From a virus (Duplodnaviria > Heunggongvirae > Uroviricota > Caudoviricetes): a stretch of DNA of 45,506 bases. The notes beneath the pieces were generated by a model. That model did not search any database. It saw only the letters and a list, made by a program, of their open reading frames with translations, and had not been told where the DNA came from. Where the stretch lies: IMG/VR virus record IMGVR_UViG_2563366923_000008, positions 1-45,506 of that record; one strand, written 5' to 3'. Shown here one piece after another: positions 7,412 to 17,470 of the stretch (positions are counted from its first letter, which is position 1; each line of letters starts with the position of its first letter). The position numbers were made by a program, and so were the translations under genes.

Positions 7412-8293
7412 TTATGCTGCAGTTTGCAATATTAACCTTGCTGCATGCTCGGCAGTGCTTACAGAAGTGATTGATACATCGTAGGTGTTAGCCAAGTCCT
7501 GTAAAGAAAGGTACGCACTATTTATTGATGCTATGTGCCTATCATTGTATGCAGGGCTATCATCTTCCGGTTTGTAGATAATCATTTGATGAGTTTCTCT
7601 TGGAAAAATATCGCCTTGCCTTTTTATCATTGATAAGTCAGATATTTTTGCTTTTCCATCCTTAACCTGCTCATTCAAGTTGTGGGGTAACAGTTTTCCG
7701 GTGTTGATAGCTGCATGATCGCTTAGATAGAAAATTTTAGCCGGTCTGTGTCCATCACTAAAGGTGAAGCTTCTATTGAAAAAAATATCCCTGCGTCCGT
7801 CAGCGCTGATAACCGCATCAAAGATTTGAATTGGCCACCTGTCTTTAGTTCTTGATTGCTTAGCTGGCAACCCATCGGAATCTTCTTCAGCCTCAAGGAG
7901 TGATGACAAACTCGATGACAATGATACCGCTTGGCGGAGTATGCCAACAGGGCTTGATGACGCAGCATTCCTTACGGCGCTTATAGTGACGCCTGTAACT
8001 GGAGGATGCCATGATACGAAATCCCCCTTAGCAGCCAGATGCAACTTCAAACTCGACAAAATCAGATCAACCACATTGATAAATGCTGGTGCTTTGAAGC
8101 CATACATAGCTTCTATAACTTCTTTTCTGATTGCCGGCTTAACTAAAATTTCACCAGATGATGTTATCGTGGCAACTGCTACCGTGAGCCGCTCTCCTGA
8201 GCCGATCATTGGTTCAAGATAAACAGATGCCCAGCGCCCTGATGTTGCAGGCATAGCAGGAGCTGACTTAAGAAGCTGATCAAGATTTAGCAT
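7412..8293 (-). CDS. Hypothetical 293-aa protein, second gene of the cI-downstream cassette
   Basis: ATG start overlaps the upstream gene stop by 14 nt (translational coupling); AT-rich; no motif recognised. Confidence 0.7.
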   Translation of the reverse strand: MLNLDQLLKSAPAMPATSGRWASVYLEPMIGSGERLTVAVATITSSGEILVKPAIRKEVIEAMYGFKAPAFINVVDLILSSLKLHLAAKGDFVSWHPPVTGVTISAVRNAASSSPVGILRQAVSLSSSLSSLLEAEEDSDGLPAKQSRTKDRWPIQIFDAVISADGRRDIFFNRSFTFSDGHRPAKIFYLSDHAAINTGKLLPHNLNEQVKDGKAKISDLSMIKRQGDIFPRETHQMIIYKPEDDSPAYNDRHIASINSAYLSLQDLANTYDVSITSVSTAEHAARLILQTAA

Positions 8294-9044
8294 CGTATAT
8301 CATCTGTGTTTGTTGGGGCTTGATTTGATCATAAAGAATGTCTCCTAGTAACTCAATTCTAGATGAAAGGAAAGACATTATTTGATTTTTCTCTTTACCT
8401 TGAACTGTTTCGGATATCTCTCCATCTAATAGCGTTAGGGTGTTACTCTTGCAAGACATGGTCCAAGCTCTCGCCTCATTTGCCATCATCTGAACGGCTA
8501 TATCATTACTTCTATCGAGTATGTAAGTTGCTACCTGCAGCAATTGATTGGAGTAATAATCTATCCCGAAAAGGTCAGGGGCAAGACCTTGGGGAATTGC
8601 CGATTCATGGTCTATCAGGAAGAAACCATCACCATTGAAAAGCAAATTTCCGTTGTGACGGTCATCCATCGCAATCCACTCATCAAAATAGCTAGCTTTT
8701 TTCAATAACGGCCATGATGCCAAAGCATCAGAAACGGCCTGATCTGAAGAGTTAGAAACATACTTCATGAAACTCGGATAGGTAGCATCAACACTACCAA
8801 AAAATGCTTTGTTTGAGCTGTCAAACAGTAGTACTGGCTCGGGTATAGGCAGGGATAGAGCTCTTCCCAAGGCTGCGCAGGTTATTTCTATAGAAATGCT
8901 CCTAGAAGATATTTCTTTTGCAAAAACAACAATCTCTTCTGGTTCGCTATTTTCTTTTATCAAAAGAGCAACGCCCTTTATCGGGTGATGTTGCCCTTCG
9001 TCAATTGCAATGCCGCCAGGTAGTAACCTTCCTATTCTGATCAC
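8280..9044 (-). CDS. HipA-like (PI3/4-kinase-fold) putative Ser/Thr kinase core, 254 aa
   Basis: GTG start with AGAGG SD 7 nt upstream; motif WIAMDDRHNGNLLF followed 8 aa later by FFLIDHESA resembles the HipA catalytic loop (D-x-H-x-x-N) plus downstream Asp; about 100 nt downstream of cI on the same strand. Confidence 0.6.
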   Translation of the reverse strand: MIRIGRLLPGGIAIDEGQHHPIKGVALLIKENSEPEEIVVFAKEISSRSISIEITCAALGRALSLPIPEPVLLFDSSNKAFFGSVDATYPSFMKYVSNSSDQAVSDALASWPLLKKASYFDEWIAMDDRHNGNLLFNGDGFFLIDHESAIPQGLAPDLFGIDYYSNQLLQVATYILDRSNDIAVQMMANEARAWTMSCKSNTLTLLDGEISETVQGKEKNQIMSFLSSRIELLGDILYDQIKPQQTQMIYDAKS

Positions 9045-9145: not shown

Positions 9146-9856
9146 TCACACAAGTCTCAACTTAGTTTCTACAGCCACACCAATGATCCGGCAATTCCCA
9201 TTGATGGGAACCAATGGCCATTGAGGGTTTAAGCCCTTCAGGTACTTCTGGCCCCCATCAATAATCAGCTTTTTGAATGTCGCTTCGTTTGATTCGGATA
9301 GCTTTGCGATCACAAGGCTGCCATTTACTGGCTCTCGGCCGGTATCAAACAAAACGTAGGTACCCTCTGGTATGCTGAGCCCGACCGGGGCAGTCATGGA
9401 TTCCCCCTCGACCAACAACCAGAACGCATCCCCCTGGATGTGAGCGTCTGATTCTAGCCATAGATCGATATCTTTAAGTGCATACGGCTCGCACGCTTCC
9501 GACCAATGCCCAGCCTGAATCTTGCTTAATACAGGGTATTTAATGCCTGGGGTGTACTGGCCTGCATACTTGGCATTCGATGTAGCGGAAGCACTCATTG
9601 CAGATATTTCTTTCGCAAGGCTGGGGCTAAAATCAGAGACATCCACCTGGAGGGCTCTGGCAAAAACAGCAGCCACGGCAGCATTAAGGGCATTCCTGCC
9701 ATTCAAGTAATGCCCAACGCCCCCCTGAGATATGTCTAGCATGTCAGCTATTGATTGCTGTGTTATCCCAAGCTCTTTTTTCTTGGCTTCATAGAGGGCT
9801 TTCAGCCTTTCTGCGTCAGCGATCTGAGCCGATGTCAGTGTCTTTTTCTTTTCCAT
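9146..9856 (-). CDS. cI: CI repressor (Cro/C1 HTH plus LexA-like S24 autopeptidase domain)
   Basis: Near-colinear with lambda CI from memory (LKALYEAKKKELG...SMTAP...FKKLI...LNPQWP...); ATG at 9856 has no SD, consistent with a leaderless PRM transcript; track start at 9862 is TTG. Confidence 0.9.
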   Translation of the reverse strand: MEKKKTLTSAQIADAERLKALYEAKKKELGITQQSIADMLDISQGGVGHYLNGRNALNAAVAAVFARALQVDVSDFSPSLAKEISAMSASATSNAKYAGQYTPGIKYPVLSKIQAGHWSEACEPYALKDIDLWLESDAHIQGDAFWLLVEGESMTAPVGLSIPEGTYVLFDTGREPVNGSLVIAKLSESNEATFKKLIIDGGQKYLKGLNPQWPLVPINGNCRIIGVAVETKLRLV

Positions 9857-9890
9857 TTTCAAATAGTAATACCAATGTTCTTATTTTAAA

Positions 9891-12441: not shown

Positions 12442-13061
12442 CTATCACACTACAGGCAGTAAACGAGCTCATCGCCTTCTTGGAGAGCGCAGGCGAGCTG
12501 TCGATCAGAGAGCAGAAGTATCTGGACGTTATGCGCTGGGCGATTCGTGTTGCTGGCGAGCGTGATGCGGCGCTGAATGCAGAGCTTGTATGGGAAAAGA
12601 CCATGATGGAAGCTTGCGGCGAGGATGGCCCTGCGTCGGTAGCCAACGAAATTCGCTCGTTGCGGGCTCTACGGGATACGGCAATTCAGGCGCTTAAGTC
12701 TCAGGTTGAGCAGCTGTCTGCGGAGAATGTGGCGCTGAAGGCAGCCGTTGCGGAAGAAATTGAAGTTATCAATCGTGGTGGACAGCGGTATTGCGTGAAG
12801 GACGGCATGTCTATAAACCCGATATATGCGCGCGGATGGAATGACCACCGGGCTAATTTGACAGCAGTAGAAACCCCCGCCACAGATCGCTTCGTAGTCG
12901 GGATTAAGGCTGATGGGGTGGAAGAGTTTGCAGCGATGACAGAAAAAGTTGGTGATGAAGAGGAGTTTTACGATCACGGGGAGTCTTCTGAGACGCTGAA
13001 ATACACGGCTAAGCAAGCAAGATTATTCGCCCAGCAGCTGCGCGATGGGGCCGACAAATGA
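12438..13061 (+). CDS. Hypothetical protein with coiled-coil segment
   Basis: ATG at 12438 overlaps the upstream stop; 207 aa. Confidence 0.5.
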   Translation: MTITLQAVNELIAFLESAGELSIREQKYLDVMRWAIRVAGERDAALNAELVWEKTMMEACGEDGPASVANEIRSLRALRDTAIQALKSQVEQLSAENVALKAAVAEEIEVINRGGQRYCVKDGMSINPIYARGWNDHRANLTAVETPATDRFVVGIKADGVEEFAAMTEKVGDEEEFYDHGESSETLKYTAKQARLFAQQLRDGADK

Positions 13062-13633
13062 CCAAATCAACCATAACCAGAGAGCGAATAGCTCAGATAG
13101 CAAATCCTGGCGCATGGGTGAAGTGTACGCACGAAGAGGTGCAGGAACTAGCCCGCATGGCTCTGGCCGCAATGGACAGCGAGTCTGAGTGTTTGCCTAT
13201 CGACTACCTACAGGGACACAAAGACGGTCTGGAGTGGGCCGCCAAACTGGCGGAAGCCAACCACCCTGAAACCGGAGACTGGCTTTACGATGACCCTATC
13301 GAGCTGGCAAAAGCTATTCGCAAAGGTCCAGATATGCCGCCAGCGCAGCCGGTAGCGGACAGCGAGCCGGTGGCGGTAATTGACCTGGCTAACCTTGATT
13401 ATCTCCTAAGTGGTGCTGATGCCGATGTGTGGCCTCCTGAGCGCGAAGAGATGGGAGATGTGCTTCTCTGTCGCCACGCGCAGCCAGCGACGGTAGTGCC
13501 GAAAGACCATCAAATCCGCGAACTGGTTAATCAGTTGCGCGATATTGCGATTGAATATCATGGGACACAGCAACTTCGTGAACGCATTGCGCGGGTTCTA
13601 CGCGCCGCCATGCTCAACGGAGGTAAGTCATGA
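13058..13633 (+). CDS. Hypothetical protein
   Basis: 191 aa, ATGA start/stop overlap. Confidence 0.5.
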   Translation: MTKSTITRERIAQIANPGAWVKCTHEEVQELARMALAAMDSESECLPIDYLQGHKDGLEWAAKLAEANHPETGDWLYDDPIELAKAIRKGPDMPPAQPVADSEPVAVIDLANLDYLLSGADADVWPPEREEMGDVLLCRHAQPATVVPKDHQIRELVNQLRDIAIEYHGTQQLRERIARVLRAAMLNGGKS

Positions 13634-14097
13634 AATTCGAAGAATGGTTATCGCAACAAAACGGCGTCATTGAGGTTGATTGCGGCTGTGTTACCTCTGA
13701 AGCTTTTTATCACTGGATGCGCGTAGCTTATGAGGCTGGCAACTCTCAGGTGATTCCGGATGGTTGGACATGCAACGATAAAGCAAACGCAGCGCTGATG
13801 ATGCTTGATCGGATTGAAACGGTAGACCCTGTTGATGATGACCGTATCGACAGCATTAAGCGCATTGTTCGTGAGCTCGCAGCCGCCCCGCAGTCTCCCG
13901 GCAGTGACCCTGCCACCGTGCCGGGTAAATGGATTCCGGTAAGCGAGCGGATGCCGGAGAATGATGTATCTGTTCTCACATTCGACGGAATGTATAAGCG
14001 AGTTCATCATGCCATGTATGGTCATTGGCAGTGCTGGGAGCCAGAGAAAATCACCCACTGGATGCCGCTGCCAGCAGCGCCGCAGGAGGTGAGGTGA
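13630..14097 (+). CDS. Hypothetical phage protein (DUF551-like C-terminal region)
   Basis: 155 aa; C-terminal KWIPVSERMPEND...HWMPLP pattern. Confidence 0.5.
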   Translation: MKFEEWLSQQNGVIEVDCGCVTSEAFYHWMRVAYEAGNSQVIPDGWTCNDKANAALMMLDRIETVDPVDDDRIDSIKRIVRELAAAPQSPGSDPATVPGKWIPVSERMPENDVSVLTFDGMYKRVHHAMYGHWQCWEPEKITHWMPLPAAPQEVR

Positions 14098-14219
14098 TGA
14101 CCAAGTGCAATGCTCTGCTTTATGCCATGGTGATTGGCTTCGGCCTGGTTGCTGGTATCCGGGTTTATATTGCCTGGGAGTCATTAATCAATCTGGCGTG
14201 GAGTGCGATTCGTGGCTAA
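14097..14219 (+). CDS. Small membrane peptide (40 aa)
   Basis: ATG overlapping the upstream stop; MTKCNALLYAMVIGFGLVAGIRVYIAWESLINLAWSAIRG. Confidence 0.35.
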   Translation: MTKCNALLYAMVIGFGLVAGIRVYIAWESLINLAWSAIRG

Positions 14220-14295
14220 ATCCCCCGCAGAACGCAAAGCCGCGCAGCTAATCTGTTAGTGATATATAATCCCCTTCATAACCTGAGGGGGATTT

Positions 14296-14544
14296 ATGTT
14301 TAAAGAAAAAATGAACCTTGAAGCTGGCTACACTCTTTTGGACGATGGAACAGTCAGGAGGGGGCATTTAGCAAGCCGCATAGATAGAAGTTACATTGTC
14401 CTGGATGAGAATCAGAACAAAATTGGCACAGCTACAGTGACTGTTATCGAGCAAACCAAGCCGCCATTTAAGGAAGATGTTCATATTGTGAGAAAGGACC
14501 TTGATGGAAACGTGGTTCTGGATGTGCGATATGTAGATGATTAA
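14296..14544 (+). CDS. Hypothetical protein (low-GC nin insert, gene 1)
   Basis: 82 aa; AT-rich; hairpin ATCCCC...GGGGAT just upstream. Confidence 0.5.
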
Positions 14545-14546
14545 TC

Positions 14547-14804
14547 ATGAGTAAATTCAACATTGCAGCCAAATCGAAAGACGATCAGGACAAGGTCAAC
14601 GTCGACCTGGCAGCGTCCGGCGTCGCTTACAAAGAGCGCCTGAACATGCCGGTTGTCGCCGAAGTGGTGGCCAGAGAGCAGCCTGAGCATCTACGTGAGT
14701 ATTTCATGGAGCGCGTCCGCTACTACCGCGAGCAGAGCATCCAACTCCCCAAGGCATCCGATCCGCGCTATATTGAAATGGCCGAGCAGAACTCTAAGAA
14801 ATAG
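14547..14804 (+). CDS. Hypothetical protein (low-GC nin insert, gene 2)
   Basis: 85 aa; 2-nt gap to the upstream gene. Confidence 0.5.
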
Positions 14805-14823
14805 CCGATTAATCGAGGGTGAA

Positions 14824-15102
14824 ATGAATAAAATTCAATATTTGCTAGTAGGATACGGGCGTGATGGAGAAATCCATGAAGATACAGAATTAAAAAGCAG
14901 GTTGACTATTTTTGAATCATCAGTAGGCAGTAGTCATCGGCCGCCAAACGCACAATTCAATCGTTCATATGATGTTCATTTGATTCCAGTAGATGGCAAA
15001 GTCTACGCGGTTGGTGTTGGGCGAACTTTACATGGCAATGAGTTGCCTGATTTAATTTCTCTATCTGGTATATCTCCTGTTCCCAAGGAATTTACCCATT
15101 AG
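14824..15102 (+). CDS. Hypothetical protein (low-GC nin insert, gene 3)
   Basis: ATG at 14824 with GAGGG SD; 92 aa MNKIQYLLVGYGRDGEIHEDTELK... Confidence 0.5.
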   Translation: MNKIQYLLVGYGRDGEIHEDTELKSRLTIFESSVGSSHRPPNAQFNRSYDVHLIPVDGKVYAVGVGRTLHGNELPDLISLSGISPVPKEFTH

Positions 15103-15192
15103 TTGTCCATTGATTTATAAGCATCAGCCATCCATAATTACTTGGTCAGTCTGGACAACTGACAACTTTACCCCGGCGCCAAGTGGGGACAC

Positions 15193-15789
15193 ATGGCGCA
15201 AACACTGCAATTTGAGAAAAGTTATCAAAACGTACTGATTCCCGCAGAGCCGGGAACCAGCGAATACCTGCAACTTATCCCCGTAGGGCAACTGCTTTGC
15301 GGTGAGTTCCGCAAGCCCAGGAATTACGCATTCCACAAGAAGTTCTTCAAACTTCTGACTCTCGGGTATCACTACTGGACGCCTTCCGGTGGTCTCATTG
15401 AGCCCGCGGAGCGTACCCTCATATCCGGTTTTATCGACTTTCTCTCATCCGACCTCGATCAGCGCGCTGCACTCCAGAATGCCGCGGAGATGTATCTCTC
15501 CTCGGTCGGTATATCCCGTTCCCGCGATATGGCGCTGCTGAAACACTTCGAATCCTTCCGCGAGTGGGCAACCATTCAGGCTGGCTTTTATGACGAATAC
15601 CAGATGCCTGACGGCAGCCGTCGTCGTGTCGCAAAGTCGATCTCCTTCGCCAGCATGGACGACAGCCAGTTTAACGGCGTCTACAAATCAGTGCTGAATG
15701 TGCTTTGGAACTACATTCTGCGTCGCAAGTTCCACTCGCCGGCTGAGGCTGAAAACGCCGCCAGTCAGCTGCTGAGCTTTGCGGGGTGA
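15193..15789 (+). CDS. Nin-region hypothetical protein
   Basis: 198 aa; sits where ybcN/ninB-type genes lie in DLP12-like nin regions; family not verified. Confidence 0.55.
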   Translation: MAQTLQFEKSYQNVLIPAEPGTSEYLQLIPVGQLLCGEFRKPRNYAFHKKFFKLLTLGYHYWTPSGGLIEPAERTLISGFIDFLSSDLDQRAALQNAAEMYLSSVGISRSRDMALLKHFESFREWATIQAGFYDEYQMPDGSRRRVAKSISFASMDDSQFNGVYKSVLNVLWNYILRRKFHSPAEAENAASQLLSFAG

Positions 15790-15995
15790 TGGCGATGAAA
15801 TACTCATGGTTCCAGCATCCCGACTGCACAACCGAGCAGGCCGAACAGTTAGTGTCCAGATATCAGGCGCGAGGCATTGTCACAGAGAAAAGCCTTAACG
15901 CGGATTATCTGAGTTGGACGGTCAGCGCCCGGCTGCCGGTTTGTGTTCGCCCGGAGCATACTCCGCGATCACTTCGTCAACGTATATGGGGGTGA
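15789..15995 (+). CDS. Hypothetical small protein
   Basis: ATG overlapping the upstream stop (track start 15786 is GTG). Confidence 0.4.
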   Translation: MAMKYSWFQHPDCTTEQAEQLVSRYQARGIVTEKSLNADYLSWTVSARLPVCVRPEHTPRSLRQRIWG

Positions 15996-15997
15996 GC

Positions 15998-16288
15998 ATG
16001 GCCAATCTTCGTAAAGCAGCTCGCGGTCGTGAATGCCAGGTTCGCATCCCGGGCGTCTGCAACGGCAACCCTGAAACCACGGTATTGGCCCATATCCGCA
16101 TTGCTGGATTGTGCGGGACGGGGATTAAGCCGCCTGATCTGCTCGCCGCTATCGCCTGTTCATCCTGTCACGATGAAATAGACCGCCGCACGCGCCTGGT
16201 AGATGCGGAGTATGCGAAGGAGTGCGCGCTGGAGGGAATGGCCAGAACGCAGGTTATCTGGATGAAAGAGGGGTTGATAAAAGCATGA
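15998..16288 (+). CDS. YbcO-like small Cys-rich protein (putative nuclease family)
   Basis: [34 protein letters not shown]...[11 protein letters not shown]; lies directly upstream of rusA as in DLP12. Confidence 0.6.
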
Positions 16289-16647
16289 AACAATATCGCA
16301 TTTCATTACCCTGGCCGCCAAGCAACAACCGCTACTACCGGCACAACCGGGGACGCACACACATCAGCGCGGAAGGGCAGGCATACCGCGACAGCGTCGC
16401 CAGAATCATCAAAGACTCGATGCTTGATATCGGCCTGGCCACGCCATTGAAAATCCGTATTGAGTGTCACATGCCGGATCGCCGGCGCCGTGACCTGGAC
16501 AATCTGCAAAAGGCAGCATTCGACGCCCTGACGAAATCGGGTTTCTGGCTCGATGACCAGCAGGTTGACTACTACAGCGTGAAGAGAATGCCTGTCGTCA
16601 AAGGTGGGCGGCTTGAGCTAACCATTACTGAAATGGAGTCCGCATGA
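16285..16647 (+). CDS. rusA: Holliday-junction resolvase RusA
   Basis: [42 protein letters not shown]...[19 protein letters not shown]...[10 protein letters not shown] is near-identical in pattern to E. coli RusA. Confidence 0.85.
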
Positions 16648-16784
16648 GCCGTGACGTTATCGAACGCATCCGCGACCGCTGGCAAAAGCTTCGCCTCCTG
16701 CGTAGCCGCGGCACCGTGCTGGTCGACTACAAAATATTACGCAATTTCGTCCGTATCTATAAGCGCCTGGGAGAAGCAGCATGA
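16644..16784 (+). CDS. Small protein (46 aa), YlcG-like position
   Basis: ATGA overlaps at both ends (rusA stop and Q start); [46 protein letters not shown]. Confidence 0.35.
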
Positions 16785-17470
16785 CAGCTCAATACTTGGA
16801 ATTTGTTCGCCAGCAGCTGATAGTGGCCACCGCCGATCTGAGTGGTGCGACGAAAGGGCAACTGGTAGCTTTTGCAGAGAACGCGCAATTTACCGCTACG
16901 GCGCGCAGCCGTGGCCGGAAGAAGGTGTATAGCGAGGTGAAGCAAAAAATGGTTAACCCGGATGGACCGCCGATGAGCGGCAGCCAGTCCCGCGCTAAGG
17001 GTTCCTCAATCGCTCTCGTTCTGCCCGTTGAATACTCGACAGCCAGCTGGCGCCGCGCCCTCCTGTCGCTGGAAGACCACCAGAAATCCTGGTTGCTGTG
17101 GAACTACAGCGACAATATCCGCTTTGAGTATCAGGTAGCGATAACACAGTGGGCATGGGAAGAATTCCGTGATCAACTCGGCGCTAAGAAAGTGGCCGGC
17201 AAGACGATGGAGCGGCTGAAGAAACTGATATGGCTGGCGGCACAGGACGTGAAAGCAGAGCTGGCGGGTAAGTATGTATATCAGCACCAGGACCTTGCAG
17301 CCCTGTGTGGCGTTAAGCCTGATAACTGGTGCCATAACTACGCTGATTACTGGCGGGCTATGTGCGCCATTTTTAAGCGGCTTGATAGCGACTCTCTTCT
17401 CTGTGCTGTGAGAACACGATCACAACAAAAAGCGACTTTTTCGCAGCAGGGTCTTGCAAAAGTCAATTAA
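16781..17470 (+). CDS. Putative late antiterminator Q
   Basis: 229 aa directly upstream of the PR'/tR' region and lysis cassette; call is mainly positional. Confidence 0.6.
   Translation: MTAQYLEFVRQQLIVATADLSGATKGQLVAFAENAQFTATARSRGRKKVYSEVKQKMVNPDGPPMSGSQSRAKGSSIALVLPVEYSTASWRRALLSLEDHQKSWLLWNYSDNIRFEYQVAITQWAWEEFRDQLGAKKVAGKTMERLKKLIWLAAQDVKAELAGKYVYQHQDLAALCGVKPDNWCHNYADYWRAMCAIFKRLDSDSLLCAVRTRSQQKATFSQQGLAKVN

Follow-up and report, generated by a model that had tools for sequence, protein, structure and literature searches.

Genes and Features of the Locus

The window, by which the whole analysed stretch of 45,506 nucleotides is meant, is a lambdoid prophage in which an integrase, RecT, RecE, a cI-like repressor, O, DUF551, DUF1367, YbcO, RusA and Q were recognised through PHROG and Pfam. 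Its type is that of a Rac-like Klebsiella lambdoid prophage with RecE/RecT, and the best DNA matches of the region 13600-15800 were Klebsiella temperate phages (72 of 90 records). Three small genes, here termed orf82, hot and orf92, occupy a stretch within the nin region, between the replication genes and Q. They are followed by a DUF1367 gene, the first resident nin gene on the 3' side of what is described below as a cargo slot. The features are as follows.

1-1194: integrase
minus strand: RecT and a 1129-aa RecE-like exonuclease
9146-9862: cI-type repressor
plus strand: replication protein O, several Ead/Eaa/DUF551-type genes, DUF1367, YbcO and RusA
14212-14259, plus strand: left junction, a 15-codon stub (GTG...TAG) of a 112-aa phrog_536 gene ("transcriptional regulator"), containing the conserved block AATCCCCCGCAGAACGCAAAGCC at 14219-14241
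14268-14294, plus strand: terminator-like hairpin AATCCCCTTCA-TAACC-TGAGGGGGATT, with an 11-bp stem, 5 G-C pairs and a 5-nt loop
14296-14544, plus strand: orf82, 82 aa, function not assigned, predicted all-beta; phrog_28488 (E 4e-58)
14547-14804, plus strand: hot, 85 aa, homologue of Pol III theta and P1 Hot; Pfam PF06440, NCBIfam NF008207, PHROG 1105
14811-15133, plus strand: orf92 module of 323 bp, replacing the 42-bp spacer of phages in which hot lies directly before DUF1367
14824-15102, plus strand: orf92, 92 aa, function not assigned; phrog_23640 (E 1e-58)
15134-15200, plus strand: right junction, a conserved 67-bp leader plus the first codons of the next gene, which is DUF1367 here and NinB in other phages
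15193-15789, plus strand: DUF1367 protein; Pfam PF07105 (E 2.7e-70), phrog_319, with the PHROG label NinB/Orf-like recombination mediator
16781-17470, plus strand: antiterminator Q

The presence of three tightly packed ORFs of 82, 85 and 92 aa on the plus strand at 14296-15102, as described in an earlier note on this DNA, was confirmed, with gaps of 2 nt between orf82 and hot and of 19 nt between hot and orf92. That note had also claimed an AT-rich composition for all three. The GC and GC3 profile, computed against an overall GC of 51.2% for the window, bore this out for orf82 (GC 41.8%, 4th percentile of 250-bp windows, GC3 0.41) and orf92 (GC 39.4%, 2nd percentile of 250-bp windows, GC3 0.28), but not for the middle gene (GC 53.9%, 66th percentile of 250-bp windows, GC3 0.70), the GC3 of which is equal to or higher than that of the neighbouring genes (0.54-0.66). 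For the whole 807 bp the GC is 45.0%, only the 6th percentile of 807-bp windows. It is orf82 and orf92, therefore, that are compositionally foreign. Values of dN/dS lie between 0.04 and 0.26 across all three genes (0.04-0.14 for orf82, 0.05-0.26 for hot and 0.13 for orf92), and all three are real genes.

Elsewhere in the window, a second AT-rich island is located on the minus strand at 7412-9044 (GC 41-43%, GC3 0.37), directly adjoining the cI-type repressor. It encodes a 293-aa protein with no Pfam match and a 254-aa protein with a sub-threshold match to HipA_2, a HipA-like kinase (25.5 bits against a cut-off of 27). Such a placement and base composition suggest a module of toxin or defence type that is expressed in the lysogen. 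A search of 13000-16500 against Rfam returned no RNA family.

Theta/Hot Family Membership of the Middle Gene

The middle gene can be assigned by sequence to the DNA polymerase III theta/Hot family. Its product scored 120 bits against PF06440 (cut-off 34.6), with model positions 1-68 of 70 covered, and 106.1 bits against NF008207 (cut-off 97). The closest solved relative is HOT of phage P1 (PDB 1se7/2ido; E 1.6e-33, 55/74 identical), followed by theta of E. coli (PDB 1du2; E 5e-20, 38/65 identical), and the length of 85 aa fits the theta/Hot size class of about 76-85 aa. The hot annotation is already carried by Klebsiella phages in GenBank, and PADLOC returned only a chance-level match of hot to GajA (E 0.029). 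The earlier note had seen no recognisable motif in any of the three ORFs; this holds for orf82 and orf92, neither of which matched a family in Pfam, NCBIfam or PADLOC, but not for the middle ORF.

P1 Hot is described as replacing theta and stabilising the epsilon proofreading subunit, and structures of epsilon186:HOT exist (PMC2528190, PMC7556043). By homology, the Hot protein of this prophage would most likely bind the N-terminal exonuclease domain of epsilon (DnaQ) in the host Pol III, and would stabilise epsilon while the phage uses the host replicase. The suggestion that these ORFs serve host takeover can be retained loosely, in that Hot would target the host replisome.

Homologues of hot are present in at least 586 viral contigs of IMG/VR. 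Among the 80 of these loci that were listed, the homologues are at least 89% identical, and hot lies nearly always directly upstream of NinB, DUF1367 or NinE. A separate observation concerns the gene labelled "DNA polymerase III subunit theta" in Klebsiella phage ST974-OXA48phi18.2 (3329-3787 of L004; related loci are given here by L numbers) and in L045-L060. This gene of 152 aa is a chimera, in which about 30 hot codons are followed by a TonB_C-like protein with a signal peptide (phrog_36291); the true start of the latter is probably an internal MKKTS. The GenBank label is misleading for this reason.

Left Junction and Hairpin at the Entrance of the Nin Region

The left conserved flank spans 14213-14247. 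The window has one copy of its block, which was found in at least 119 IMG/VR contigs. In about 30 contexts the same start as that of the stub runs into the full 112-aa ORF, which matches phrog_536 with E 5e-51. Elsewhere, as here, the phrog_536 gene is cut to a stub of 11-25 codons in most related phages. Variation within the block is concentrated at the third codon position (55, against 13 and 6 at the other two), because the block is the 5' end of the 112-aa gene. An ATG or GTG start is kept in 95% of the left-block contexts, and full-length copies of phrog_536, for example in L240, L246 and L255, are Cys-rich with no Pfam match. A reading of the block (MPKSPAERKA...) as a regulatory leader peptide, prompted by this third-position variation, was considered and rejected, since the same start leads into the full gene in those roughly 30 phages. 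Just upstream, at 14097-14219, a hydrophobic ORF of 40 aa (phrog_5525, E 8e-29) overlaps the DUF551 stop codon in an ATGA and reaches as far as the slot's left junction; it was found again in several related phages.

A hairpin ahead of the ORFs had been proposed previously, and the 11-bp stem was recovered as a stable element. The 106-nt hairpin region folds at -31.1 kcal/mol, compared with -20.7 +/- 2.9 for shuffled sequences (z = -3.6), and 0 of 200 shuffles were as stable. Downstream of the stem lies the T-rich tract TATGTTT (TATGTTTAAA), and the element has the form of an intrinsic (rho-independent) terminator, namely a GC-rich stem-loop followed by a T-tract. Judged from its interrupted T-tract (ATTTATGTTT), the hairpin may terminate poorly. 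The 3' arm (GAGGGGG) is at the same time the Shine-Dalgarno sequence of orf82, and the ATG of orf82 is located within the T-tract. The TATAAT immediately 5' of the hairpin was also considered as the -10 element of a promoter. It is accompanied by no -35 element and was not called in the scan, and is better read as the A/T extension of the stem.

The same arrangement recurs in other phages, where a hairpin of this terminator-like form stands behind the block in 87 of 146 distinct sequences, with at least five unrelated stem sequences in use. Hairpins with unrelated stems at the entrance of the nin region are seen, for instance, in L003 (2486-2510), L069, L092, L075 and L150, among others. In the commonest cargo-bearing type, a GAGGGG 3' arm forms the Shine-Dalgarno sequence and the T-tract holds the ATG of the first gene, whether this is hot, orf82 or another. 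Empty sites carry the hairpin as well, and it is present upstream of other cargo too; it therefore belongs to the slot and not to the insert. Furthermore, the occurrence of unrelated stems at one position argues indirectly for a conserved terminator function at the nin entrance, as in lambda.

Modular Variation of the Slot

The slot is bounded on the left by the stub and hairpin (14212-14294) and on the right by the leader of the DUF1367 gene (15134-15200). The right junction is 83-99% identical in L001-L003, L011-L017 and L144-L223, regardless of the preceding cargo. Two small inverted repeats lie in the leader at 15134-15192 (GTCAG...CTGAC and CCCC...GGGG), and the latter can pair with the gene's own Shine-Dalgarno sequence. 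Depending on the phage, this one conserved leader precedes either DUF1367 or NinB, which are unrelated genes.

That the stretch interrupts the nin region, as had been claimed, was established by phages in which the downstream DUF1367 gene is 95-100% identical and the segment 14250-15133 is missing. Because such closely related phages lack the whole stretch, it is a genuine insertion polymorphism, placed where the nin region begins. The spacing of the flanks is 86-88 bp in 21 distinct empty contexts, and only about 70-88 bp separate the same conserved flanks in L144, L154 and L003; elsewhere the spacing is about 360-373 bp where hot is the only cargo, and rises to 1430 bp. With flanks at least 95% identical, the slot was found empty (L144, L154), with hot only (L146), with orf82 and hot (L191), with hot and orf92 (L177), and with all three genes (L153/L157). 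Among the 74 contigs in which the DUF1367 gene is at least 98% identical, the nin region contains hot in 28 (38%), orf82 in 3 and orf92 in 3.

The limits of the individual modules could be placed from these comparisons. Homology to L146 and L191 stops at 14810 and resumes at 15134, and L177, which has hot and orf92, is collinear with the window at 98.6%. The orf82 module joins hot inside the first four codons of the latter, homology to other hot genes beginning at 14556-14559, and the orf92 module of L018 brings the last 39 nt of hot with it. Module boundaries are thus located within hot or at its ends, at 14559, 14766 and 14810.

These observations bear directly on the earlier view of the stretch as one three-gene insert, according to which a single low-GC operon was acquired en bloc and acts as a joint anti-defence or host-takeover cassette. 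Such an origin would be consistent with the single strand and tight spacing of the genes, with the orf82-hot spacing that is typical of coupling, with the early accessory location, and with the recurrence of the exact trio in two IMG/VR contigs. However, the GC3 of hot (0.70) is set apart from that of orf82 (0.41) and orf92 (0.28), the module boundaries fall inside hot or at its ends, and hot by itself is the common state. Near-identical phages carry the genes in separate combinations, every sub-combination existing in phages with near-identical flanks. A joint acquisition is largely refuted by these patterns of presence and absence as they stand in the compared genomes, and we regard it as very improbable.

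The interval is instead most probably, at about three chances in four, a cargo slot prone to recombination, located at the head of the nin region and holding three independently acquired small genes, of which hot is a homologue of P1 Hot and theta. In this slot hot is a common resident, whereas orf82 and orf92, one on each side of hot, are rare and were added independently. This is ordinary phage mosaicism and not a new system, orf82 and orf92 being already catalogued as PHROGs with no assigned function.

The Flanking Genes orf82 and orf92

Close relatives of orf82 form 16 clusters in a word-indexed search, confined to Klebsiella and Raoultella, and these close homologues are always immediately upstream of hot. 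Exhaustive HMMER searches added three further small homologues with 28-38% identity. The first is widespread in Cronobacter prophages, in a pL-side accessory region between the recombination genes and int, and is absent from E. coli genomes; the second adjoins SMEK_N and AcrVA2-like genes; the third lies near AlpA/DUF3987. A theta gene is next to none of the three, which all occupy other early accessory regions. A tblastn search of orf82 against GenBank phages gave nothing, as did a profile search of PDB with the widened family alignment. In K. variicola chromosomes (L011-L015, 4001-4700), an orf82 of 80 aa with an in-frame deletion of 2 aa stands beside a truncated hot of 45 aa. This remnant is small and integrase-associated, adjoins a peptidase M3 gene and is accompanied by a colicin-immunity-like gene; its orf82 protein is indexed in 103 blocks of the collection. 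Giant HYR_4C repeat proteins (P0032, P0034-P0036) also matched the orf82 profile, with E values down to 3e-15. They were rejected as relatives, as the matches are inflated by repetition of one short motif (TVxVIDxTKPxF) that recurs 8-15 times, and the case calls for caution over repeat-driven false positives.

For orf92, only three clusters of close relatives were obtained, in Klebsiella and Citrobacter, together with a subfamily at 27% identity, orf92b, in Klebsiella and Enterobacter phages. The strong Shine-Dalgarno sequence of orf92 itself is GAGGGTGA. Of 33 viral loci with members of the orf92 family, 27 have hot next to them, either intact or as a remnant; many of these loci are near-duplicates. 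The gene also occurs alone or adjoining DinI, and it is found without any hot in L018, L039, L043 and L044.

Searches with both genes were extended in several directions. The homology to conserved nin proteins that had been named as a check was sought: orf82 and orf92 matched only phrog_28488 and phrog_23640, respectively, and neither matched NinB, NinE, NinG, NinH, RusA, YbcO or DUF1367 in Pfam, NCBIfam or PHROG. All family members compared with Pfam at E values up to 10 gave nothing consistent, and a PDB profile search with the widened orf92 alignment gave chance matches only. The AF2 models, built from shallow alignments, have a pLDDT of 57 for orf82, which is all-beta, and of 48 for orf92; both are unreliable at these values, and Foldseek searches with them against PDB and BFVD returned nothing below E 0.1.

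It might be argued from their shortness, the lack of family annotation and the low-confidence predicted structures that orf82 and orf92 are no more than spurious reading frames within AT-rich spacer. However, both genes keep their frame and length down to 66-74% identity (and down to 27-38% in the distant homologues), with dN/dS of 0.04-0.14 at dS of 0.3-1.3; moreover, orf92 has its strong Shine-Dalgarno sequence, and a PHROG family exists for each. Both genes are under purifying selection, and the spurious-ORF reading is hardly credible, having already been refuted by this substitution pattern.

A partnership with Hot was weighed next to this, in which orf92, and perhaps orf82, would act together with Hot or DinI on the replisome or in the SOS response, with epsilon, RecA or the clamp as examples of binding partners. 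The frequent adjacency described above can be cited for it, as the 27 of 33 loci, with hot or its remnant on either side, compare with a baseline of 38%, and the adjacency extends over two subfamilies only 27% identical, often with DinI next door; the constant position of close orf82 homologues directly upstream of hot agrees with it too. Yet adjacency of orf92 and hot is expected from position alone, because hot is so common in the slot. Its weight as a sign of a functional link was further reduced by the orf92b lineage, where the neighbouring "theta" is merely the stub of about 30 hot codons fused to the TonB_C-like secreted protein. Similarly, orf92 exists in the four loci that lack hot, the distant orf82 homologues never adjoin hot, and orf82 persists beside the truncated hot of K. 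variicola. Since each of the two genes is found both where an intact hot is present and where it is lacking, neither most likely depends on hot for its action, and a partnership is distinctly unlikely.

Anti-defence activity unrelated to Hot is somewhat less doubtful, though still unlikely. According to this proposal, orf82 and/or orf92 would block a host immune system as new anti-defence proteins. It fits small, AT-rich, sporadic genes in an early accessory slot, and it is consistent with the clustering of one distant orf82 homologue with AcrVA2-like and SMEK_N proteins and with the placement of others in the pL-side accessory region of Cronobacter prophages. These indications are, however, guilt by association only. 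Neither gene matched the PADLOC defence models or the Acr-type families of Pfam, there is no Pfam homology to a characterised inhibitor and no structural match, and marked acidity or DNA-mimic features are lacking in both. At low confidence, the two products can be pictured as early accessory proteins with binding partners among host or competitor factors.

Proposed Expression of the Slot Genes

Promoter-like sites in the region number 2 compared with 2.9 expected, none of them before orf82, hot or orf92, and no terminator-like site was found after orf92. With no promoter above chance and no terminator behind the last gene, the three genes would be transcribed with the early rightward operon, in agreement with the early placement that had been suggested for them. 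The delayed-early rightward transcript would read through the hairpin into orf82, hot and orf92. As the ribosome-binding site and AUG of orf82 are buried in the hairpin, translation of orf82 should be restrained. The gene hot has no Shine-Dalgarno sequence of its own and starts 2 nt past the orf82 stop, so that it is probably translationally coupled to orf82; orf92 would be translated from its own strong Shine-Dalgarno sequence. The identities of the genes, their selection and composition, the indel boundaries and the modularity are results of the analysis; we infer the binding of epsilon by Hot, the terminator activity of the hairpin, the translational coupling and any role of orf82 or orf92.

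A more ambitious interpretation may be mentioned in this context, although we consider it speculative and rather improbable. Here, orf82 and/or orf92 would found new small-protein families that either inhibit host defence or modulate the replisome and SOS response beside Hot and DinI, and the hairpin that buries the ribosome-binding site would be a deliberate device silencing the cargo until antiterminated early transcription.

For annotation, the region is best described as a variable slot of the nin region in which hot, a theta homologue, stands between two hypothetical genes, and the value of the result is mainly housekeeping. Natural phage variants in which hot, orf82 or orf92 is the sole difference provide ready isogenic comparisons for the benefit of a phage-borne theta. 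The products of orf82 and orf92, well-defined small proteins found exclusively on mobile elements of Enterobacteriaceae, are reasonable, if unremarkable, candidates for anti-defence or host-modulation screens.

Comparison with Known Systems

The 85-aa gene resembles P1 Hot and E. coli HolE in passing the Pfam and NCBIfam thresholds and in belonging to the same length class. Its setting is different, since P1 hot is placed among the P1 late genes, whereas the present hot is a gene of the early nin region in a lambdoid prophage. Expression of P1 hot is reported in lysogens too (PMC7556043). The gene described here has no promoter of its own and is therefore, unlike P1 hot, probably expressed only after induction.

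With regard to lambda, the nin region is comparable. The slot lies between the replication genes and Q, a NinB-like/DUF1367 gene, YbcO, RusA and Q are found downstream, and a terminator-like hairpin stands at the entry; the lambda nin region itself has the internal terminators tR2-tR4. The differences are that the slot genes have no lambda counterparts and that the 3' arm of the hairpin doubles here as the ribosome-binding site of the first cargo gene.

Phage morons and the mosaic boundary sequences of lambdoid phages, a concept of Hendrix and Juhala, offer a further comparison. As with morons, the genes are polymorphic in presence and absence between near-identical phages, two of them are of deviant composition, and short conserved junctions flank them. 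They are nonetheless not classical autonomous morons, because they have neither a promoter nor a downstream terminator of their own and the cargo is located inside an early operon. In related Klebsiella and Citrobacter phages, DinI homologues take the same slot beside hot or orf92-family genes; unlike those relatives, the window described here has no DinI gene, its slot being filled by orf82, hot and orf92.
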